From sequence record OR067838.1: 64,000 nt of DNA. One strand, given 5' to 3'. Source of the DNA: Escherichia phage KKP 3954. Each line of letters opens with the position of its first letter. Within the stretch, counting starts at the first letter, position 1. The notes under the pieces were generated by a model. The model was given only the letters and a program-made list of their open reading frames with translations, did no database searches and was not told the origin of the DNA. Made by a program: the position numbers and the translations under genes. Shown piece by piece: positions 7,198-33,288 of this stretch.

Positions 7198-7276
7198 TGG
7201 AGGCGGGAATTGGATTTGAACCAATGATCTCCAGCATATGAAACTGGCGAGGACGACCAGACTCCTCTATCCCGCT
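7198..7276 (-). tRNA. tRNA-Met (anticodon CAT)
   Basis: Manual cloverleaf: CCA encoded, acceptor GGCGGGA/TCCCGCT, T-arm ATTGG-ATTTGAA-CCAAT, anticodon loop rc TTCATAT; long D-loop. Confidence 0.6.
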
Positions 7277-7280
7277 ATCA

Positions 7281-7352
7281 TGTATCCCGTGCTGGATTCG
7301 AACCAGCGTCACAATAAATTGTGGATCTCTTATCCTGTAAGTCTAACGGGAA
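7281..7352 (-). tRNA. tRNA-like element, no canonical anticodon arm (possible pseudo-tRNA)
   Basis: Perfect T-arm GCTGG-ATTCGAA-CCAGC and 6/7 acceptor complementarity, but no 5-bp anticodon stem found by hand. Confidence 0.25.
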
Positions 7353-7354
7353 AC

Positions 7355-7428
7355 TGGTTGTTTCGACAAGAATCGAACTTGTGTCTCACGATTATCAGTC
7401 GTGGGTTCTACCATTGAACTACGAAACA
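7355..7428 (-). tRNA. tRNA-Ile (anticodon GAT)
   Basis: CCA encoded; acceptor TGTTTCG/CGAAACA; T-arm ACAAG-AATCGAA-CTTGT; anticodon stem CACGA/TCGTG, loop rc CTGATAA. Confidence 0.7.
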
Positions 7429-7434
7429 TTTAAT

Positions 7435-7511
7435 TGGTCGGAATTGCAGGATTCGAACCTGCGACCCTACGCTCCCAAAGCGTATGCTCTACCAAACTGA
7501 GCTAAATTCCG
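7435..7511 (-). tRNA. tRNA-Pro (anticodon TGG)
   Basis: CCA encoded; acceptor CGGAATT/AATTCCG; T-arm GCAGG-ATTCGAA-CCTGC; D-arm GCTC-TACCAAACT-GAGC; anticodon stem TACGC/GCGTA. Confidence 0.75.
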
Positions 7512-7516
7512 TTATA

Positions 7517-7592
7517 TGGCTGGTCTGTCTGGATTTGAACCAAACCTACGACAGTCAAAGTGTCGTGTGCTACCGGACTACACTACAAACCA
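7517..7592 (-). tRNA. tRNA-Gln (anticodon TTG)
   Basis: CCA encoded; T-loop ATTTGAA; anticodon stem CGACA/TGTCG, loop rc CTTTGAC; one mismatch each in T-stem and acceptor. Confidence 0.6.
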
Positions 7593-7690
7593 ATAAATCA
7601 TTTAATGAAGGGCAACCAGAAGAAGTGTGAGAGAAGGAGAAAACCATGAGTAAAAGAGAAAGTTTTCTGGCAACCCTTTATTAAATAATT

Positions 7691-7764
7691 TGGAGCGTTC
7701 TACGAGGATCGAACTCGTGCCGCCGACTTGGAAGGACGGAATGCTACCGCTACACCAAGAACGC
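7691..7764 (-). tRNA. tRNA-Gly (anticodon TCC)
   Basis: CCA encoded; acceptor GCGTTCT/AGAACGC; T-arm ACGAG-GATCGAA-CTCGT; anticodon loop rc CTTCCAA; one mismatch in anticodon stem. Confidence 0.55.
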
Positions 7765-7775
7765 CCTATATATTT

Positions 7776-7805
7776 ACTATACTACATTTTACTATTTGTT
7801 GTCAA
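7776..7805 (-). promoter_or_regulatory. sigma70-like promoter upstream of tRNA-Gly
   Basis: Minus strand TTGACA-N18-TATAGT, placing the start site a few nt before tRNA-Gly. Confidence 0.4.
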
Positions 7806-8077
7806 GACTTTTATTGATTGGGACAGTGACGAGTATCCCGTTGGGTGACTAGCCCTACGTTCGGTAAGCTAACTTAAAATAATACAAAACCAAAGTCAAA
7901 TATTATTCTTCGTTGCTGTCGATGGGAGAGCCGCTTCTCATTTTGCCCCATCCAACCCTACTCCGGTCAAGTTTCGGGTGACTCTTTTTGTGATCAACAC
8001 AATACTAAGAACACTGTCTTTCGAGCAGACCTTGTGCACAGGAACGACGATCAATCACAATGCTCTTAATGTTGTGT

Positions 8078-8152
8078 TGGTGCTCCCACACTGAATCGAA
8101 CAGAGATCCACGGATTACAAAACCGTTGTAATAGCCATTATACTATAGGAGC
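8078..8152 (-). tRNA. tRNA-Thr (anticodon TGT)
   Basis: CCA encoded; acceptor GCTCCCA/TAGGAGC; T-loop AATCGAA; anticodon loop rc TTTGTAA; single mismatches in T and anticodon stems. Confidence 0.6.
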
Positions 8153-8158
8153 AATGCT

Positions 8159-8235
8159 GGGACTCGGCAGGATTCGATACCTGCAATTCCAGAAGCCTAT
8201 TGGCGACTGGGGGTTTACCTTAACTCTACAAGTCC
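8159..8235 (-). tRNA. tRNA-like element, unresolved fold
   Basis: T-arm-like GCAGG-ATTCGATA-CCTGC (8-nt loop) and acceptor-like complementarity GGACTCG/CAAGTCC; no canonical anticodon arm found by hand. Confidence 0.25.
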
Positions 8236-8242
8236 ATAATTC

Positions 8243-8328
8243 TGGCGATGAGTATAGGATTCGAACCTATATTGTTCTTTCGAACACGGATTAACAGTCC
8301 GCCGCTTAAACCGTTCAGCCAACTCATC
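8243..8328 (-). tRNA. tRNA with anticodon GTT (Asn-type) and an atypical 15-nt variable region
   Basis: CCA encoded; perfect acceptor GATGAGT/ACTCATC; T-arm ATAGG-ATTCGAA-CCTAT; anticodon stem ACGGA/TCCGC, loop rc CTGTTAA; extra GTTC-TTTC-GAAC hairpin. Confidence 0.45.
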
Positions 8329-8334
8329 TTAATT

Positions 8335-8422
8335 TGGTGGTGAGTGATGGAGTCGAACCACCCGAATCGCAATGATAACAGATTTACAGTCTGCCCCGCT
8401 ACCCCTACGGAATTAACTCACC
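8335..8422 (-). tRNA. tRNA-Tyr (anticodon GTA)
   Basis: CCA encoded; acceptor GGTGAGT/ACTCACC; T-loop AGTCGAA; long variable arm (class II); anticodon loop rc CTGTAAA. Confidence 0.7.
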
Positions 8423-8553
8423 TAAATACTAATATTTAAATTCTTTTTAAAATAGCCAGTGTTCGCACCACTAACTATGAGTTATCGGTAAGATGGTGGG
8501 GGGCTATCTTCCGAAAGTTTACTCTATTAAAGTAAGCTACATTAAAAAGAACT

Positions 8554-8639
8554 TGGCGGTAGATGTAGGACTCGAACCTACACGCCGTTTCCGACTACAG
8601 TTTAGCAAACTGTCGTGGCTACCATTTCACCAATCTACC
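8554..8639 (-). tRNA. tRNA-Ser (anticodon GCT)
   Basis: CCA encoded; acceptor GGTAGAT/ATCTACC; T-arm GTAGG-ACTCGAA-CCTAC; anticodon stem ACAGT/ACTGT, loop rc TTGCTAA; long variable arm. Confidence 0.75.
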
Positions 8640-8644
8640 TAATC

Positions 8645-8735
8645 TGGCGGAAGGAGGGAGAGTCGAACTCCCAAGGCTCTTTCAAGCTCGGCGGTTTTCA
8701 AGACCGTTTTCGTCGCCACATCGATTTGCCCTTCC
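8645..8735 (-). tRNA. tRNA-Ser (anticodon TGA)
   Basis: CCA encoded; T-arm GGGAG-AGTCGAA-CTCCC; anticodon stem GCGGT/ACCGT (G-U), loop rc CTTGAAA; long variable arm. Confidence 0.7.
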
Positions 8736-8969
8736 ATACTTATAATCTAACATAAAATAATGATTGTTGTCAATACTTTTTTAAAACATTTTACCATGAA
8801 TGGTGACTCCACCAACCCCCGTTCTCCACGAACGGTGCTCTTCGAGCATTTATGTCTTCTAATATAACCGTGGCCTTTGTTTATAATGTCTGACATACTT
8901 GCCTCATTCTCTGCCACCATGATCAGTAGTGGGTTCAAATCACTTGAGCTAATTCATGTTAAAATGTTC

Positions 8970-9044
8970 TGGTGTCTTTACAAGGAATCGAACCTTGACT
9001 AAGAGTTTAGAAGACTCCTGTGCTATCCATTACACCATAAAGAC
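8970..9044 (-). tRNA. tRNA-Arg (anticodon TCT)
   Basis: CCA encoded; acceptor GTCTTTA/TAAAGAC; T-arm CAAGG-AATCGAA-CCTTG; anticodon loop rc CTTCTAA. Confidence 0.7.
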
Positions 9045-9046
9045 GT

Positions 9047-9121
9047 TGGTGGCCCTGGCTGGTTTCGATCCAGCTACCTATCGGTTATGAGCCGACAGCT
9101 CTCCCATTGAGCTACAGGGCC
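9047..9121 (-). tRNA. tRNA with anticodon CAT (second copy; initiator Met or lysidine-Ile)
   Basis: CCA encoded; acceptor GGCCCTG/CAGGGCC; T-arm GCTGG-TTTCGAT-CCAGC; D-arm GCTC-TCCCATT-GAGC; anticodon loop rc CTCATAA. Confidence 0.7.
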
Positions 9122-9368: not shown

Positions 9369-9617
9369 TTAAGCATATTCTGCTACTTCTTCACTATCTT
9401 TCTTTTCCAGAAGAGCAACAACCAAAGCTTCTGCGTTAAAAGTATTAATTTCAAGATCCATCTCTCGCATCAGAGCCAAGAAATCAATAACTTTAACATC
9501 TTTAGTGATTACAATAGAAGTTGTACCATTGTTTTCAGATGTGTATTTTTCTGGATGGAAAAGAAAAACTGCATTGCCGTTACCATCTTCAAACACGTGT
9601 TTTTCTAATAGAGACAT
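9369..9617 (-). CDS. hypothetical protein
   Basis: Track ORF 9369..9683; AGGAGG RBS supports start at MSLLEKHVFEDG (9617). Confidence 0.5.
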   Translation of the reverse strand: MSLLEKHVFEDGNGNAVFLFHPEKYTSENNGTTSIVITKDVKVIDFLALMREMDLEINTFNAEALVVALLEKKDSEEVAEYA

Positions 9618-19547: not shown

Positions 19548-19605
19548 TTGACTTGCGGGATTAGTTATGATATTATGCCTACCTACTTAATGAGGTAGGC
19601 TTTTT
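19548..19605 (+). promoter_or_regulatory. composite promoter / terminator-like hairpin
   Basis: TTGACT-N17-TATTAT directly followed by GCCTACCT-loop-AGGTAGGC hairpin plus TTTTT, then RBS of the 19616 gene. Confidence 0.4.
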
Positions 19606-19615
19606 AGGAGGCGTT

Positions 19616-19825
19616 ATGAAAAAGATTCTGACAGTCGTTCTTTTAGCTTTTAGTTTCACAGTAGCAGCAGGTCAAATTACTTTAATCTTGTCTGATTCTG
19701 AAGTTAATGGCAACACAAAATATTGCTACTATTCTAACGCTAACCAAGATGAAGTTATAGCAATCCCGAAAAGTCGTCAATGTCCGTATACTAAAACATT
19801 CTCAACAGAGGATGACGATGAATAA
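19616..19825 (+). CDS. small secreted protein
   Basis: 69 aa; signal peptide MKKILTVVLLAFSFTVAAGQ. Confidence 0.5.
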   Translation: MKKILTVVLLAFSFTVAAGQITLILSDSEVNGNTKYCYYSNANQDEVIAIPKSRQCPYTKTFSTEDDDE

Positions 19826-19837
19826 TTAGGGGGAAAT

Positions 19838-20956
19838 ATTAGCGGTTATATTTTAATTAAACCTGAAGATCTTCATTTATATGTCAACGAAGAAACAATA
19901 GCTGCAATTGATTATGATCAGATCGCTTTCCAAGCAGCGTCTGCATTAGAGAAAAGAACAATCATTGCGAAGCACATCCCTTCGGGTGCTCAAAAGGAAT
20001 TTAAAAATAAGACAGAGTTTTGGGGTAAAAGCAAGACTAAAATTGGAGGTTGGCTAGGAGATACAAATGCAGAAAGAGCCTCCAAAAACAAACGTCCCTT
20101 CACAAAGGAAGAGTTCGAAATCATTGATAAGCAATACCCGCCAGAAGATATCGGACACACCTTCCAAGCAGCTAAAACAAAAGTCTTAGGTATTCTAAAA
20201 CATCTACGTTTAGAAAAATATTGCGGAGTTATTGGCGTAGGAAAAACTTTCAGACACGCCTTCAAAATGCCCGTAGAATATAAATCTGAACGGTTAGATA
20301 TCAAACCACTTCAGCTTTCAGAAACCAAAGATTATCTTGTGGAATTCCACAATGGTGATGTTGTTACTGTAATAGAGGCTGACGATGAGTTGGAGAAATA
20401 TGGTTTCCAGGGTTATAAAGATTATAAAAGGACGGGTAAATTTTCTTATATCGTAGTGTCTATCGATAAAGATAGTTTACATACTCCTAGTATCCTTTTT
20501 AATTTCTACAAAGAAGATGGAGTCTTTAAAAACCCAGATATAATTCTTATTGATGAATCTATTGGCGACATATGGATCGTAGATAAAGGTAAAAAGAAAG
20601 AAGTTAAAGGTTGGGGCAGTTACTGGTTAGCATATCAAATGCTAATGGGAGATAAAACAGATAGTATCCGACCTTATCAAGATTTTGATATTAAGTTTGG
20701 AGATATTACTTGTTTTAATCTTCTTTCAGCTTGTAAAACTCAAGCAGAGCTTTTCCAAACAGTTAAAGATACTTACTACTCATGGTTCCCAGATGGTGTT
20801 AATTTTACTTCTTGGGATGGAGAAGAAGTCCATATGACAACAGATGAATGGATAGAAACAATTTTCCAGTTGGTATACATGAAACGCTGGGATAATGACG
20901 ATACAACATTTGAGAGTATGCTTCAGTCATACATCTCACAACAGGAGGCAGAGTGA
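19838..20956 (+). CDS. rnh: RNase H / 5'-3' exonuclease (T4 rnh-like), apparent non-AUG start
   Basis: Frame open from 19826; IAAIDYDQIA, EADDELEKYG, VVSIDKDS, LMGDKTDSI resemble T4 RNase H acidic clusters; no ATG/GTG/TTG in frame before 20267; GGGGG RBS then ATT. Confidence 0.55.
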   Translation: MSGYILIKPEDLHLYVNEETIAAIDYDQIAFQAASALEKRTIIAKHIPSGAQKEFKNKTEFWGKSKTKIGGWLGDTNAERASKNKRPFTKEEFEIIDKQYPPEDIGHTFQAAKTKVLGILKHLRLEKYCGVIGVGKTFRHAFKMPVEYKSERLDIKPLQLSETKDYLVEFHNGDVVTVIEADDELEKYGFQGYKDYKRTGKFSYIVVSIDKDSLHTPSILFNFYKEDGVFKNPDIILIDESIGDIWIVDKGKKKEVKGWGSYWLAYQMLMGDKTDSIRPYQDFDIKFGDITCFNLLSACKTQAELFQTVKDTYYSWFPDGVNFTSWDGEEVHMTTDEWIETIFQLVYMKRWDNDDTTFESMLQSYISQQEAE

Positions 20957-21603
20957 GCAGATTAACAGAAGAGCAGAAAGCAGATATCCTTAGTATGAGT
21001 GCAGAGGGTATGTCTTCTCGCAATATTGCAGCAATTGTTTTAGGTAGTCCAACAAGAAAAAGCACAGTAAATGATTTCCTTGCACGTTTCGGTGCAAGTA
21101 AACAAGAGCCAGTTAAAAAGAAACAACCAGTTATTAAAATTATTGATGTTGAAACTGCACCAGAGATTGCATATACTTTCCGTCGATTCAAAGCCTTCAT
21201 TTCTCCAGACCAGGTAATTCGTAGGGGTTATTTGTTATCTTACTCTTCTGCTGATTTGTATACAGGTGAAGTAGAAGGTAAGAACTTATCTTCTTATCCT
21301 CTTTTCGATATCGATCATACAGACGATTGGGAGCTTTGCCAAGATCTTTGGAACCTTCTGAATGAGGCAGATGTAGTTGTGGCACACAACGGGTATAAGT
21401 TTGACCGTGCATACATTAACCAACGATTTGCATATCACGATATGGCTCCTCCTTCTAATTATGTAGTTGTTGATACATTGAAGGCAGCTAAGAAACAATT
21501 TGCACTTCCTTCCAACTCCCTTAAAGAAATGGGAGCATATTTCGAAACAGAAAGTGAAAAACTGGATAACGAGGGGTTCCCCTTTATGGAAAGCATGTTG
21601 TGA
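20953..21603 (+). CDS. DEDDy-type 3'-5' exonuclease with N-terminal HTH, N-terminal part (frame-disrupted)
   Basis: Exo I IDVETAPE, Exo II VVAHNGYKFD; reading frame ends at 21603 before Exo III. Confidence 0.55.
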   Translation: MSRLTEEQKADILSMSAEGMSSRNIAAIVLGSPTRKSTVNDFLARFGASKQEPVKKKQPVIKIIDVETAPEIAYTFRRFKAFISPDQVIRRGYLLSYSSADLYTGEVEGKNLSSYPLFDIDHTDDWELCQDLWNLLNEADVVVAHNGYKFDRAYINQRFAYHDMAPPSNYVVVDTLKAAKKQFALPSNSLKEMGAYFETESEKLDNEGFPFMESML

Positions 21604-24009: not shown

Positions 24010-24019
24010 GGAGAAAAAA

Positions 24020-24433
24020 ATGACAAAACAGATTTCGGCTAGTATTATTGCACATTCCATCACTGAAGACGGAAAAGAGATTGTAACTTTCGAACTTGAA
24101 TATCCACGTATTATTCATTCAGAACTGATGACTCACCGCCTGTTCAGTCGTAACGCTGCTTCTAGCCGTGCTATACCTGTTAAAACACTGATCGAAATGG
24201 TGCGAAATCAGCCTGCTCGTCCTTATCGTTTTGGTGCTAACCAACCTGGTATGCAGGACAAAGGTGTTGACCATGATGCTCTTATTGATGCAGGTTATAC
24301 TGCTCAAGAGTGGTGGGATCTTGCCGCGCTTAGCGCAGCACGTTTTGCAGAAGAATTCTCTTTGGCAGGGAATACCACAAACAAGTTGCAAACCGTCTTC
24401 TGGAACCTTTCCAACGAATTAAAACAGTTCTGA
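24020..24433 (+). CDS. ThyX-like protein, N-terminal reading frame
   Basis: THRLFSRNAASSRAIP resembles the ThyX RHRxxSxxxxSxR motif; frame ends at 24433. Confidence 0.45.
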   Translation: MTKQISASIIAHSITEDGKEIVTFELEYPRIIHSELMTHRLFSRNAASSRAIPVKTLIEMVRNQPARPYRFGANQPGMQDKGVDHDALIDAGYTAQEWWDLAALSAARFAEEFSLAGNTTNKLQTVFWNLSNELKQF

Positions 24434-24501
24434 CAGCAACAGAATATGAAAATTTCTGGTGGCTACGTGATGACAAAGAAGCCGATCCTACTATCGAAGC
24501 T

Positions 24502-25020
24502 TTGGCTAAAGAGATGCACAAAGAGTATGAAGAATCTACACCAGAAGTGCTGAAACCAGGGCAATGGCACACACCTTATGTAGACCATTTCTATGATAAT
24601 ATTGGCACAGAAGGTGACGATCATTTTGTTTTTGGTGGATACTACGTTCAAGATGAATCTGGAGAAGTTGTTGTGCTTACTTTGGAAGAAGCTAAAGCTA
24701 TTTCAGCTTCGTGTTGTGCACAGGTTAGCTATCGTCGTTTGAATGCAACTAAAGATAAAGCTTTAGATATTTATGGTCGTTTGCTAACTGGGCGCAAGGT
24801 TCATGCTTCTCCATTTGAACATCAAGCCACCCCAATGCAAGAAACATGCGAACAATACGGAGAGAACTGTTTTGAAGATTTGTTTATCAATGCTCCTTGG
24901 GATTTTAACTCTTGGGAACCAGGTATTACCCATGTAGATCGTAATGGTAAGTTTTGGTCTGGCAATTTCAAAGGTTGGATTCAACATCGTCAACTTTTAA
25001 CAAATCATACTAAATGGTGA
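24502..25020 (+). CDS. ThyX-like protein, C-terminal reading frame
   Basis: Frame open from 24334, overlapping upstream frame by about 100 nt; ENFWWLRDDKEADPTIEAL and HASPFEHQ are ThyX-like. Confidence 0.45.
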   Translation: MAKEMHKEYEESTPEVLKPGQWHTPYVDHFYDNIGTEGDDHFVFGGYYVQDESGEVVVLTLEEAKAISASCCAQVSYRRLNATKDKALDIYGRLLTGRKVHASPFEHQATPMQETCEQYGENCFEDLFINAPWDFNSWEPGITHVDRNGKFWSGNFKGWIQHRQLLTNHTKW

Positions 25021-32452: not shown

Positions 32453-33288
32453 CATATCTGGTATTGGGTGGTAATGGACAACTGGGACAAGCTTTACGTA
32501 AAGTGGCTCCTTCAAATGTGTCTTTAATTTATCCTAAAGAACGTGTAGATATTACAAATTTTGAAGCTGTGCGAAACGCTATTGTTGAAGATTATGTAGA
32601 TGGTGTTATTAATTGCGCTGCTTATACGGCTGTAGATAAAGCAGAACATGATTTTGCTACTGCTTTGGCTGTTAATGCCTATGGCCCTGCAAATACTGCG
32701 GCAGTGTGCAGCAAACTTAAAATTGATTTTGTGCATATTTCTACAGACTATATTTTTAATTATTCTCATCCTATTTTTGAAGATACTACACCTAACCCAA
32801 TAAACAATTATGGGTATACGAAAGAACTTGGTGAAAAAATGGTGCGAGGAGTTAACCCAAATGCATATATTATTCGAACAGCCTCGGTATATAGCGAATT
32901 TGGAAATAACTTTCTAAAAACCATGTTGTCTCGCTATAATGATGGACAACGTGATTTTATTATTGTTGCTGATCAGTTCTCTTGTCCAACATATGCCCCA
33001 GATTTAGCAGAAGCTATTTTTGAAGTATTAAAAACAGGTTGGTCAAGATCTGTAAAGACTTACCATTTTGCAGGAAGCCATCTTATTTCTTGGGCGGAGT
33101 TTGCGGAAAAGATCTTGACACAGATGCCAGAACCTGTTAAGATATCGGCGGTATCAGCTTCAACCTATAATGCTCCAGCAGCACGTCCGGTGAAGTCACA
33201 ATTAGTAACCAGTCACTATCTTACAAAATCAGATTTAAATAAAGGTATTGAACGGTCTTTAGCAGTATTACTTAATAAGGAGAGGTAA
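32446..33288 (+). CDS. rmlD: dTDP-4-dehydrorhamnose reductase
   Basis: 280 aa; N-terminal LGGNGQLG Rossmann motif; completes B-A-C-D order. Confidence 0.75.
   Translation: MLTYLVLGGNGQLGQALRKVAPSNVSLIYPKERVDITNFEAVRNAIVEDYVDGVINCAAYTAVDKAEHDFATALAVNAYGPANTAAVCSKLKIDFVHISTDYIFNYSHPIFEDTTPNPINNYGYTKELGEKMVRGVNPNAYIIRTASVYSEFGNNFLKTMLSRYNDGQRDFIIVADQFSCPTYAPDLAEAIFEVLKTGWSRSVKTYHFAGSHLISWAEFAEKILTQMPEPVKISAVSASTYNAPAARPVKSQLVTSHYLTKSDLNKGIERSLAVLLNKER

Follow-up and report, generated by a model that had tools for sequence, protein, structure and literature searches.

The locus

The gene considered here lies in the genome of Escherichia phage KKP 3954 (sequence record OR067838.1); it is predicted to encode a FEN-type 5' nuclease and probably begins with ATT. 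We analysed a stretch of 64,000 nucleotides of this genome, called the window below, which we identify as that of a phAPEC8-like Phapecoctavirus (Stephanstirmvirinae); 64 phage records match the region at 95-99%. The features on which the argument turns are the following.

19838 to 20956, plus strand: full-length FEN-type 5' nuclease gene, 372 codons followed by TGA
19828 to 19833, plus strand: Shine-Dalgarno (SD) sequence AGGGGG, made up of A19828 and GGGGG at 19829-19833, with one G-U wobble
19838 to 19840, plus strand: ATT, the putative start codon of the FEN gene; it is in frame and separated by 'aaat' (4 nt) from the last G of the SD
19907 to 19918, plus strand: I-D-Y-D motif (D25, D27), located by an alignment of 47 homologues and lying 116 codons ahead of the first canonical start codon
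20267 to 20269, plus strand: ATG of the internal Met-144, the start in most database annotations, giving a 229-aa truncated product
19616 to 19825, plus strand: 69-aa open reading frame (ORF) with an N-terminal signal-peptide-like segment (phrog_4641, E = 7e-27)

Translation of all three frames of the window confirmed what a preliminary description of this DNA had reported, namely that the nuclease frame is open from 19826, directly after a TAA at 19823-19825; it runs to the TGA at 20954-20956. That description had also placed the first in-frame ATG, GTG or TTG at 20267, and had pointed to a GGGGG at 19829-19833 followed by an in-frame ATT at 19838. Both statements are correct: a direct scan and the ORF list agree on ATG 20267, the 144th codon when the ATT is taken as the first. 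The duplex between AGGGGG and the 3' end of 16S rRNA has a calculated energy of -9.3 kcal/mol. The TAA at 19823-19825 is the stop codon of the 69-aa ORF, which in the window shares the frame of the FEN gene and ends 12 nt before the ATT.

The resulting stretch of 147 codons without a canonical start is more than chance. In the 44 long ORFs of the window, 5.4% of all codons are ATG, GTG or TTG, which gives a probability of about 3e-4 for 147 start-less codons, and none of 4551 sliding segments of 147 codons in the other 44 long ORFs lacks all three. When we collected all stop-to-stop frames of at least 120 codons with at least 40 leading codons free of canonical starts, only the FEN frame and a frameshifted thyX gene (described below) looked truly coding. 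Four other start-less leads on the plus strand, at 9373, 58610, 60905 and 62067, were set aside as they read like non-coding frames; one more lies at 32913 on the minus strand.

The frame encodes a divergent FEN-family nuclease

The protein translated from ATT 19838 matches the PHROG family phrog_107, annotated 'exonuclease', with E = 1.4e-55 over residues 10-367, and full-length homologues of 360-380 aa exist. An AlphaFold2 (AF2) model built with 47 homologues has a mean predicted local distance difference test score (pLDDT) of 96 over the whole length and a predicted template modelling score (pTM) of 0.89. When this model was compared with the PDB by Foldseek, the top 13 matches were all ExoIX (3zdc), T5 D15/T5 FEN (5hp4/1exn) or Mycobacterium smegmatis Pol1, with probabilities of 0.92-1.00 and E values down to 8e-5; the model and these matches together indicate a PIN-like alpha/beta fold with the FEN helical arch and the helix-three-turn-helix (H3TH) region. 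Residues D25, E180, D182, D183, D210, D212, D272 and D275 do not vary among the 47 homologues, and D27 hardly does; they follow the order of metal-binding carboxylates conserved in the superfamily, an N-terminal Asp and then E-x-D(-D), D-x-D and D-x-x-D clusters. In a profile alignment the carboxylate motifs YK..R, E-A-D-D, D-K-D and G-D..D-N line up with those of the Taq 5' nuclease, the last of them with its GDxSDN; the match is weak (E = 0.36), and we use it for the motifs only.

A Pfam scan of the protein gave no family at E <= 0.01, PF02739 (5_3_exonuc_N) included, and phmmer found no match among PDB sequences; distant homologues (P0035, P0073-75, P0077, P0079, P0080, P0082 and P0084) do carry precomputed PF02739 matches. 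The likeness to T5 D15, ExoIX and the Pol I 5' nuclease is one of fold (Foldseek probability 1.0, E = 8e-5 to 4e-3), whereas identity to the solved FEN structures is 11-14%. Compared with T5 D15 or ExoIX, the phage protein has insertions and some 100 additional residues; the template modelling (TM) score is 0.40 when normalised by query and 0.58 by target. On the modelled fold and the motifs, we conclude that the protein is a divergent FEN-family 5' nuclease, recognised by these and not by a Pfam model, and we predict that it has FEN activity (5' flap or 5'-3' exonuclease). The preliminary description had called it T4 RNase H-like. This holds at the level of the superfamily of FEN 5' nucleases, but the nearest solved structures are those of E. 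coli ExoIX and T5 D15, and T4 RNase H is absent from the top 50 structural matches.

The start codon in related phages

We compared the DNA at the junction between the upstream gene and the nuclease gene in 80 IMG/VR loci, ten named phage records and six metagenomic contigs (numbers preceded by L are locus labels). Where the protein shares at least 50% identity with that of the window (32 loci), a near-cognate codon invariably stands 4-5 nt after a strong SD sequence: ATT in 21, ATC in 6, ATA in 3 and CTG in 2. The SD is TAGGAGG, AAGGAGG or AGGGGG, at the same spacing. This set comprises the window, phAPEC8, nepoznato, ESCO13, phi92, Bas62/JohannJBalmer, phiWec179, the Klebsiella phages phi1_175008, FBKp34 and 05F01, and metagenomic contigs. 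By contrast, the 25 loci whose identity does not exceed 47% (rV5/PVP-SE1-like and others) all have a canonical codon at the aligned position (ATG 7-9, GTG 6, TTG 10). The starts of the distant loci (L020-L043, L096) were assigned by alignment together with SD spacing, and the loci are not independent lineages. We also observed that GTG or TTG is used in 16 of these 25 distant loci, so that weak canonical starts are favoured by this nuclease family outside the near-cognate clade as well.

A search at the protein level gave 84 homologue clusters. The distant ones (40-47% identity) are 364-380 aa long and begin M-G-Y-P, their Met aligning with the Ile of I-S-G-Y; thus the alignment of N-termini to homologues that the preliminary description had proposed as a check puts the ATG, GTG or TTG of the distant proteins exactly at ATT 19838. 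Close homologues (53-86%) have called N-termini that are ragged (MNEDT, MHKY, MIKPEDL, MKH, MAFQ, MVIDYD, MDYDQ), which, judged from the sequences, is a sign of gene callers taking any internal ATG, GTG or TTG. In a neighbour-joining tree the near-cognate clade is monophyletic and cleanly apart from the canonical group, and several codon changes fall inside it.

From these comparisons we infer that translation of the FEN gene starts at ATT 19838, with a probability that we put at roughly 0.8. Of the two possibilities raised in the preliminary description, initiation at AUU is therefore strongly supported, given the near-cognate codon behind a strong SD in every relative of at least 50% protein identity. 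These comparative start data, the selection acting on codons 2-143 and the lack of an SD at 20267 lead us to reject a sequencing error or frameshift, readthrough, a pseudogene and initiation at Met-144, and in our reading of the sequences ATT 19838 is the only start consistent with the data.

The alternative that survives best, itself improbable, is initiation at another near-cognate codon nearby, for example ATT 19850 or 19856, or purely SD-independent reinitiation. Several in-frame ATT or ATA codons do occur within the first seven codons (I5, I7), and the preceding stop codon is close to the start everywhere, at 12 nt in the window and 1-18 nt in all relatives. Only position 19838, however, has the 4-5 nt spacing to the SD that is kept in every lineage, and only there do the start codons of distant homologues align; I5 and I7 are not kept as near-cognates (F-I-K-I-K in L010, K-F-E-T in L017).

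The first 143 codons and the internal ATG

Between the window and six relatives, the rate of non-synonymous change (dN) in codons 2-143 is 0.18-0.32 (0.10-0.35 in codons 2-24), while that of synonymous change (dS) is at least 1.5 or saturated; this pattern indicates that these codons are under purifying selection and translated. Residues 1-143 alone match phrog_107 with E = 5e-7, and in the AF2 model they have a pLDDT of 86-98 and form part of the FEN fold. They include the I-D-Y-D motif, which we take to be the first metal-binding carboxylate cluster, an assignment that we carry over from knowledge of T5 FEN and the Taq 5' nuclease. According to the preliminary description this first catalytic-Asp region, TIAAIDYDQIA, was already encoded by 19895. 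The region is indeed in frame, but 19895 is where it begins, and D25 and D27 are encoded at 19910-19912 and 19916-19918, past the end coordinate given there. Residues 1-143 would include the peptide (M)SGYILIKPEDLHLYVNEETIAAIDYDQIAFQAASALEK.

These observations bear on the start chosen by gene callers that allow only ATG, GTG and TTG (as in nepoznato, iGC_PHA_EC001, phAPEC8 and Klebsiella phi1_175008), namely ATG 20267, which would make a protein of 229 aa and leave the 441 nt upstream non-coding. Met-144 is conserved in close relatives, but it is Leu in some homologues, and there is no SD upstream of the ATG (cacgccttcaaaATG). The start would, moreover, discard a selected segment that matches the exonuclease family by itself and is integral to the predicted fold, together with the invariant D25 and the nearly invariant D27, and it would leave the long start-less frame to chance. 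We regard it as very unlikely.

Codons 2-143 of the window (19841-20266) contain no Met codon, GTG or TTG, so that Met-144 is the single canonical codon in 2-144. Over the same stretch several near-cognate relatives have 0-2 internal canonical starts, and most canonical-start homologues have 4-10. Depletion as a feature of the clade was ruled out, since L005/phiWec179 has 7 and the phi92 group 5; the scarcity may reflect weak selection downstream of a weak start, or chance.

The sequence upstream of the start

In the window, as in several relatives, the upstream ORF and the nuclease gene share one frame and a single stop codon stands between them, which the preliminary description does not mention. 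One database protein, P0005 (444 aa; L089 1201-2535, Logan contig SRR30397360_28145), joins the two. The nuclease could in principle be made as such a fusion, by readthrough of TAA 19823 or by frameshifting, with no initiation site of its own; we consider this highly improbable. P0005 is an artefact of gene calling, a fusion only because a TAG was read as Gln: the DNA reads TAG, GAGGGTAAT, ATC. (Some proteins in the large collection therefore stem from gene calls with recoded stop codons.) L005/phiWec179 and L006/phi92 have the small upstream ORF in another frame, and in L010, L017 and L018 two in-frame stops separate it from the nuclease start. In locus L009 a TAA directly precedes the ATC equivalent to ATT 19838. 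Elsewhere the upstream gene is a different one altogether, a methyltransferase in L087 and, in L095, an HNH endonuclease whose TAA ends 1 nt before the CTG. Because of the L009 stop, the changes of frame, the intervening stops and the replaced upstream genes, we consider the sequence upstream of the ATT not to be coding. A fusion would, in addition, place a signal peptide on a cytoplasmic nuclease, which is implausible, and would leave the conserved SD at initiation spacing unexplained.

The second possibility of the preliminary description, a canonical start concealed by a sequencing or assembly error or by a recent frameshift or point mutation, is refuted and has next to no probability: the window does have at least one private indel, the 2-nt insertion that breaks thyX, but 19780-19900 is the same in independently sequenced phages (the start region is identical in the window, nepoznato, ESCO13, iGC_PHA_EC001 and one IMG/VR contig, and phAPEC8 differs by one substitution upstream of the SD), 64 records match at 95-99%, and a near-cognate codon occupies the same position in lineages with saturated synonymous divergence.

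Comparison with known near-cognate starts

In E. coli only infC and pcnB are confirmed as AUU-start genes (bioRxiv 10.1101/063800). The phage gene shares with them a near-cognate codon at SD spacing, and its D25 and D27 and a selected N-terminal segment precede the first canonical start; the start is conserved among orthologues (32/32) and replaced by a canonical codon at the same position in distant homologues (25/25). Near-cognate initiation here is thus of the infC/pcnB type and not a new mechanism. The apparent novelty lies in the instance: in a phage gene, a non-canonical start has become fixed throughout a subfamily and yet drifts among all four near-cognates.

In infC, as in the phage gene, an AUU stands behind an SD a few nucleotides after the stop codon of the preceding cistron and is conserved in orthologues; the infC AUU lies 3 nt after the thrS stop (PMC3592434). 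Translation of infC from AUU is repressed by initiation factor 3 (IF3) (PMC3592434, PMC2268962). In Streptomyces sigR, a conserved non-canonical start (GTC) that is repressed by IF3 (PMC5472188) likewise serves as an IF3 translational control point, although codon, organism and regulon all differ from those of the phage gene. The phage gene differs from infC in two respects. Control of infC is autoregulatory, whereas the phage product is a nuclease, so that any dependence on IF3 would make it a one-way sensor; and in the phage clade the codon wanders among AUU, AUC, AUA and CUG.

The best functional analogy for a 5' nuclease is with pcnB, another AUU-start gene. Its weak AUU is generally thought to limit an enzyme, poly(A) polymerase I, that is harmful when over-produced. 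pcnB is, however, a host gene for another class of enzyme, and harm from over-production of the phage FEN is assumed.

A proposed mechanism and its selection

A near-cognate start codon read by initiator tRNA gives a protein with an N-terminal Met. We propose that the strong AGGGGG positions AUU 19838, 4 nt downstream, for initiation, and that initiator formylmethionyl-tRNA (fMet-tRNA) would read it, so that the protein would begin Met-Ser-Gly-Tyr and not with Ile. As the FEN gene is a second cistron, some initiation may come from ribosomes that have just terminated at the 69-aa ORF; reinitiating ribosomes accounted for about half of initiation when the arrangement was infC-like (PMC3592434). 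In E. coli AUA, AUC, AUU and CUG initiate at about 1-2% of the level of AUG and yield proteins with an N-terminal Met (bioRxiv 10.1101/063800), and in another reporter AUU was 6-8-fold below AUG (PMC3592434). Judging from its conservation, the most likely function of the weak AUU would be to hold synthesis of the nuclease low. It may also tie this synthesis to the balance in the infected cell between ribosomes and IF3, which discriminates specifically against these near-cognate codons, as in infC and pcnB: initiation at non-canonical codons is inhibited by excess IF3 (PMC2268962), and the activity of AUU mRNAs varies with temperature, nutrient state and ppGpp (PMC5499595).

In evolutionary terms, the near-cognate start would have arisen once, at the base of the Stephanstirmvirinae-like clade, and since then the codon would have moved among four weak near-cognates and never gone back to ATG, GTG or TTG. 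Because synonymous sites are saturated and a single step leads from ATA, ATT or ATC to ATG, yet the clade has no canonical codon, a strong start would seem to have been selected against. By analogy with the known cases, we give about even odds to the idea that the near-cognate start was selected for low expression. Far more doubtful is a further proposal, again by analogy, that the ratio of IF3 to ribosomes, or a change of fidelity induced by the phage, gates the nuclease to a stage or state of infection; its evolutionary part, in which an IF3-gated nuclease was fixed once in the ancestor of Stephanstirmvirinae and kept by selection against canonical codons, is equally tentative.

Several points weigh against a start at ATT 19838 or against selection for its weakness. 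A literature search gave no proteomic or ribosome-profiling data on the N-terminus for these phages. The SD is strong, not exceptional: about 43% of a (biased) background of the best SD of each ORF is at least as strong. L087 and L088 have an in-frame ATG, without SD, 9-10 codons downstream that is possibly also used. The argument from avoidance of ATG is modest as a test against neutral drift, since about 11 independent lineages give (0.8)^11, or about 0.09; it gains strength only when set against the preference for ATG that is normal across the genome. Toxicity and IF3 sensing, as the functional rationale, are argued purely by analogy. Finally, the RNA around the start (19770-19910) is no more stable than shuffled sequences (z = 0.23).

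Apart from the SD and coding constraints, an alignment of 13 lineages revealed no conserved non-coding element. Nor was an exceptionally strong SD offsetting the weak codon supported, the values of -7 to -13 kcal/mol being ordinary to strong. Because there is neither conserved RNA structure nor an unusually strong SD, we propose control at the level of the codon only.

The window also holds a cluster of 10 tRNA genes (7198-9121, minus strand), with an 11th tRNA-like Rfam match at 8338-8422 that ARAGORN did not call. One tRNA(CAT), at 9047-9121, is presumably a tRNA-Ile2-like reader of AUA, judged by eye. A second, at 7198-7276 on the minus strand, has an A1·C72 acceptor mismatch reminiscent of initiator tRNA. 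We considered the latter as a phage-encoded initiator helper and rejected it, as it is without the three G-C pairs of the initiator anticodon stem (compared by eye). Any link of the tRNA(CAT) genes to near-cognate initiation is pure speculation.

Annotation of the nuclease in public records

Of the ten named-phage records, nine carry a shortened FEN gene, among them RefSeq phAPEC8, phi92 and nepoznato as well as BASEL phage Bas62. Their products, of 229-364 aa, are without the first catalytic aspartates or are cut just before or after them. Among the records inspected, only that of ESCO13 in RefSeq annotates the coding sequence (CDS) from ATT, with a ribosome-binding site (RBS) feature; the others use an internal ATG, GTG or TTG, and the phi92 record remarks on its truncated call, 'No RBS identified; weak Prodigal statistics'. 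We attribute the truncated nuclease of most entries to the AUU start, kept across the phage subfamily. The gap left by the truncated call has been filled in one record by the following ORF, which is almost certainly spurious.

20067 to 20189, in another frame within the N-terminal part of the nuclease: 40-aa ORF (MQKEPPKTNV...), annotated as hypothetical protein G377_gp266 in phAPEC8 RefSeq NC_020079 (L092 530-652)

A literature search on AUU or ATT starts in phages, on Phapecoctavirus and on ESCO13 found no description of the near-cognate start, and the genome announcement of ESCO5 and ESCO13 makes no mention of an ATT start.

Gene neighbourhood and other features of the window

The order of genes and signals at the locus is an rdgC-like gene (PF04381), a promoter with a hairpin, the small signal-peptide ORF, the FEN gene and a gene for a DnaQ-like 3'-5' exonuclease. 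The phi92 homologue of the small ORF is gp086, which is annotated with a signal peptide. The remaining features are these.

19548 to 19576, plus strand: predicted sigma-70-like promoter just past rdgC, TTGACT, 17 nt spacer, TG-TATTAT; 10/12 consensus matches and an extended -10 TG
19577 to 19605, plus strand: terminator-like hairpin, GCCTACCT...AGGTAGGC, with an 8-bp stem containing 5 G-C pairs, then TTTTT
20953 to 21603, plus strand: DnaQ-like 3'-5' exonuclease gene, identified by PF13482 RNase_H_2 (E = 1.8e-5) and by annotations in relatives; 21603 is the end of the listed ORF only, and in relatives the annotated homologue is some 320 aa long (960-bp CDS)

The predicted promoter is likely to be the start of a transcript carrying the small ORF and the FEN and DnaQ-like exonuclease genes; the FBKp34 record has a promoter annotated at the equivalent position. 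The GTG start of the DnaQ-like gene overlaps the FEN stop codon (GTGA), and for this reason we place the two genes in one operon. The hairpin adjoins the -10 element of the promoter and, from its sequence, probably ends rdgC transcripts. Transcripts from the promoter would start within the hairpin and so escape termination, whereas those from rdgC would stop there.

Elsewhere in the window, a gene for a ThyX-like flavin-dependent thymidylate synthase (24020-25020) is split between two frames, an ORF at 24020-24433 and a frame open over 24334-25020. Relative to Shigella phage SF1-1, which has an intact CDS of 999 nt, the window carries two additional nucleotides (AA) at 24371-24372. All close records compared have match lengths equal to that of SF1-1 (1048 nt), and on that basis the insertion is private to the genome of the window; it reflects a sequencing error or else a true mutation that inactivates the gene. 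One extra base relative to SF1-1, at 24014, is intergenic.

Implications

Gene callers that allow only ATG, GTG and TTG will go on repeating the truncated nuclease, a systematic error that is worth correcting. A near-cognate start carried throughout a subfamily without reversion would be a natural and well-replicated case of selection for a weak, IF3-sensitive start. It would also offer a tractable system for asking whether the fidelity of initiation is exploited during infection, as these phages, Bas62 and phi92 among them, grow on E. coli hosts that are laboratory strains or have been characterised.

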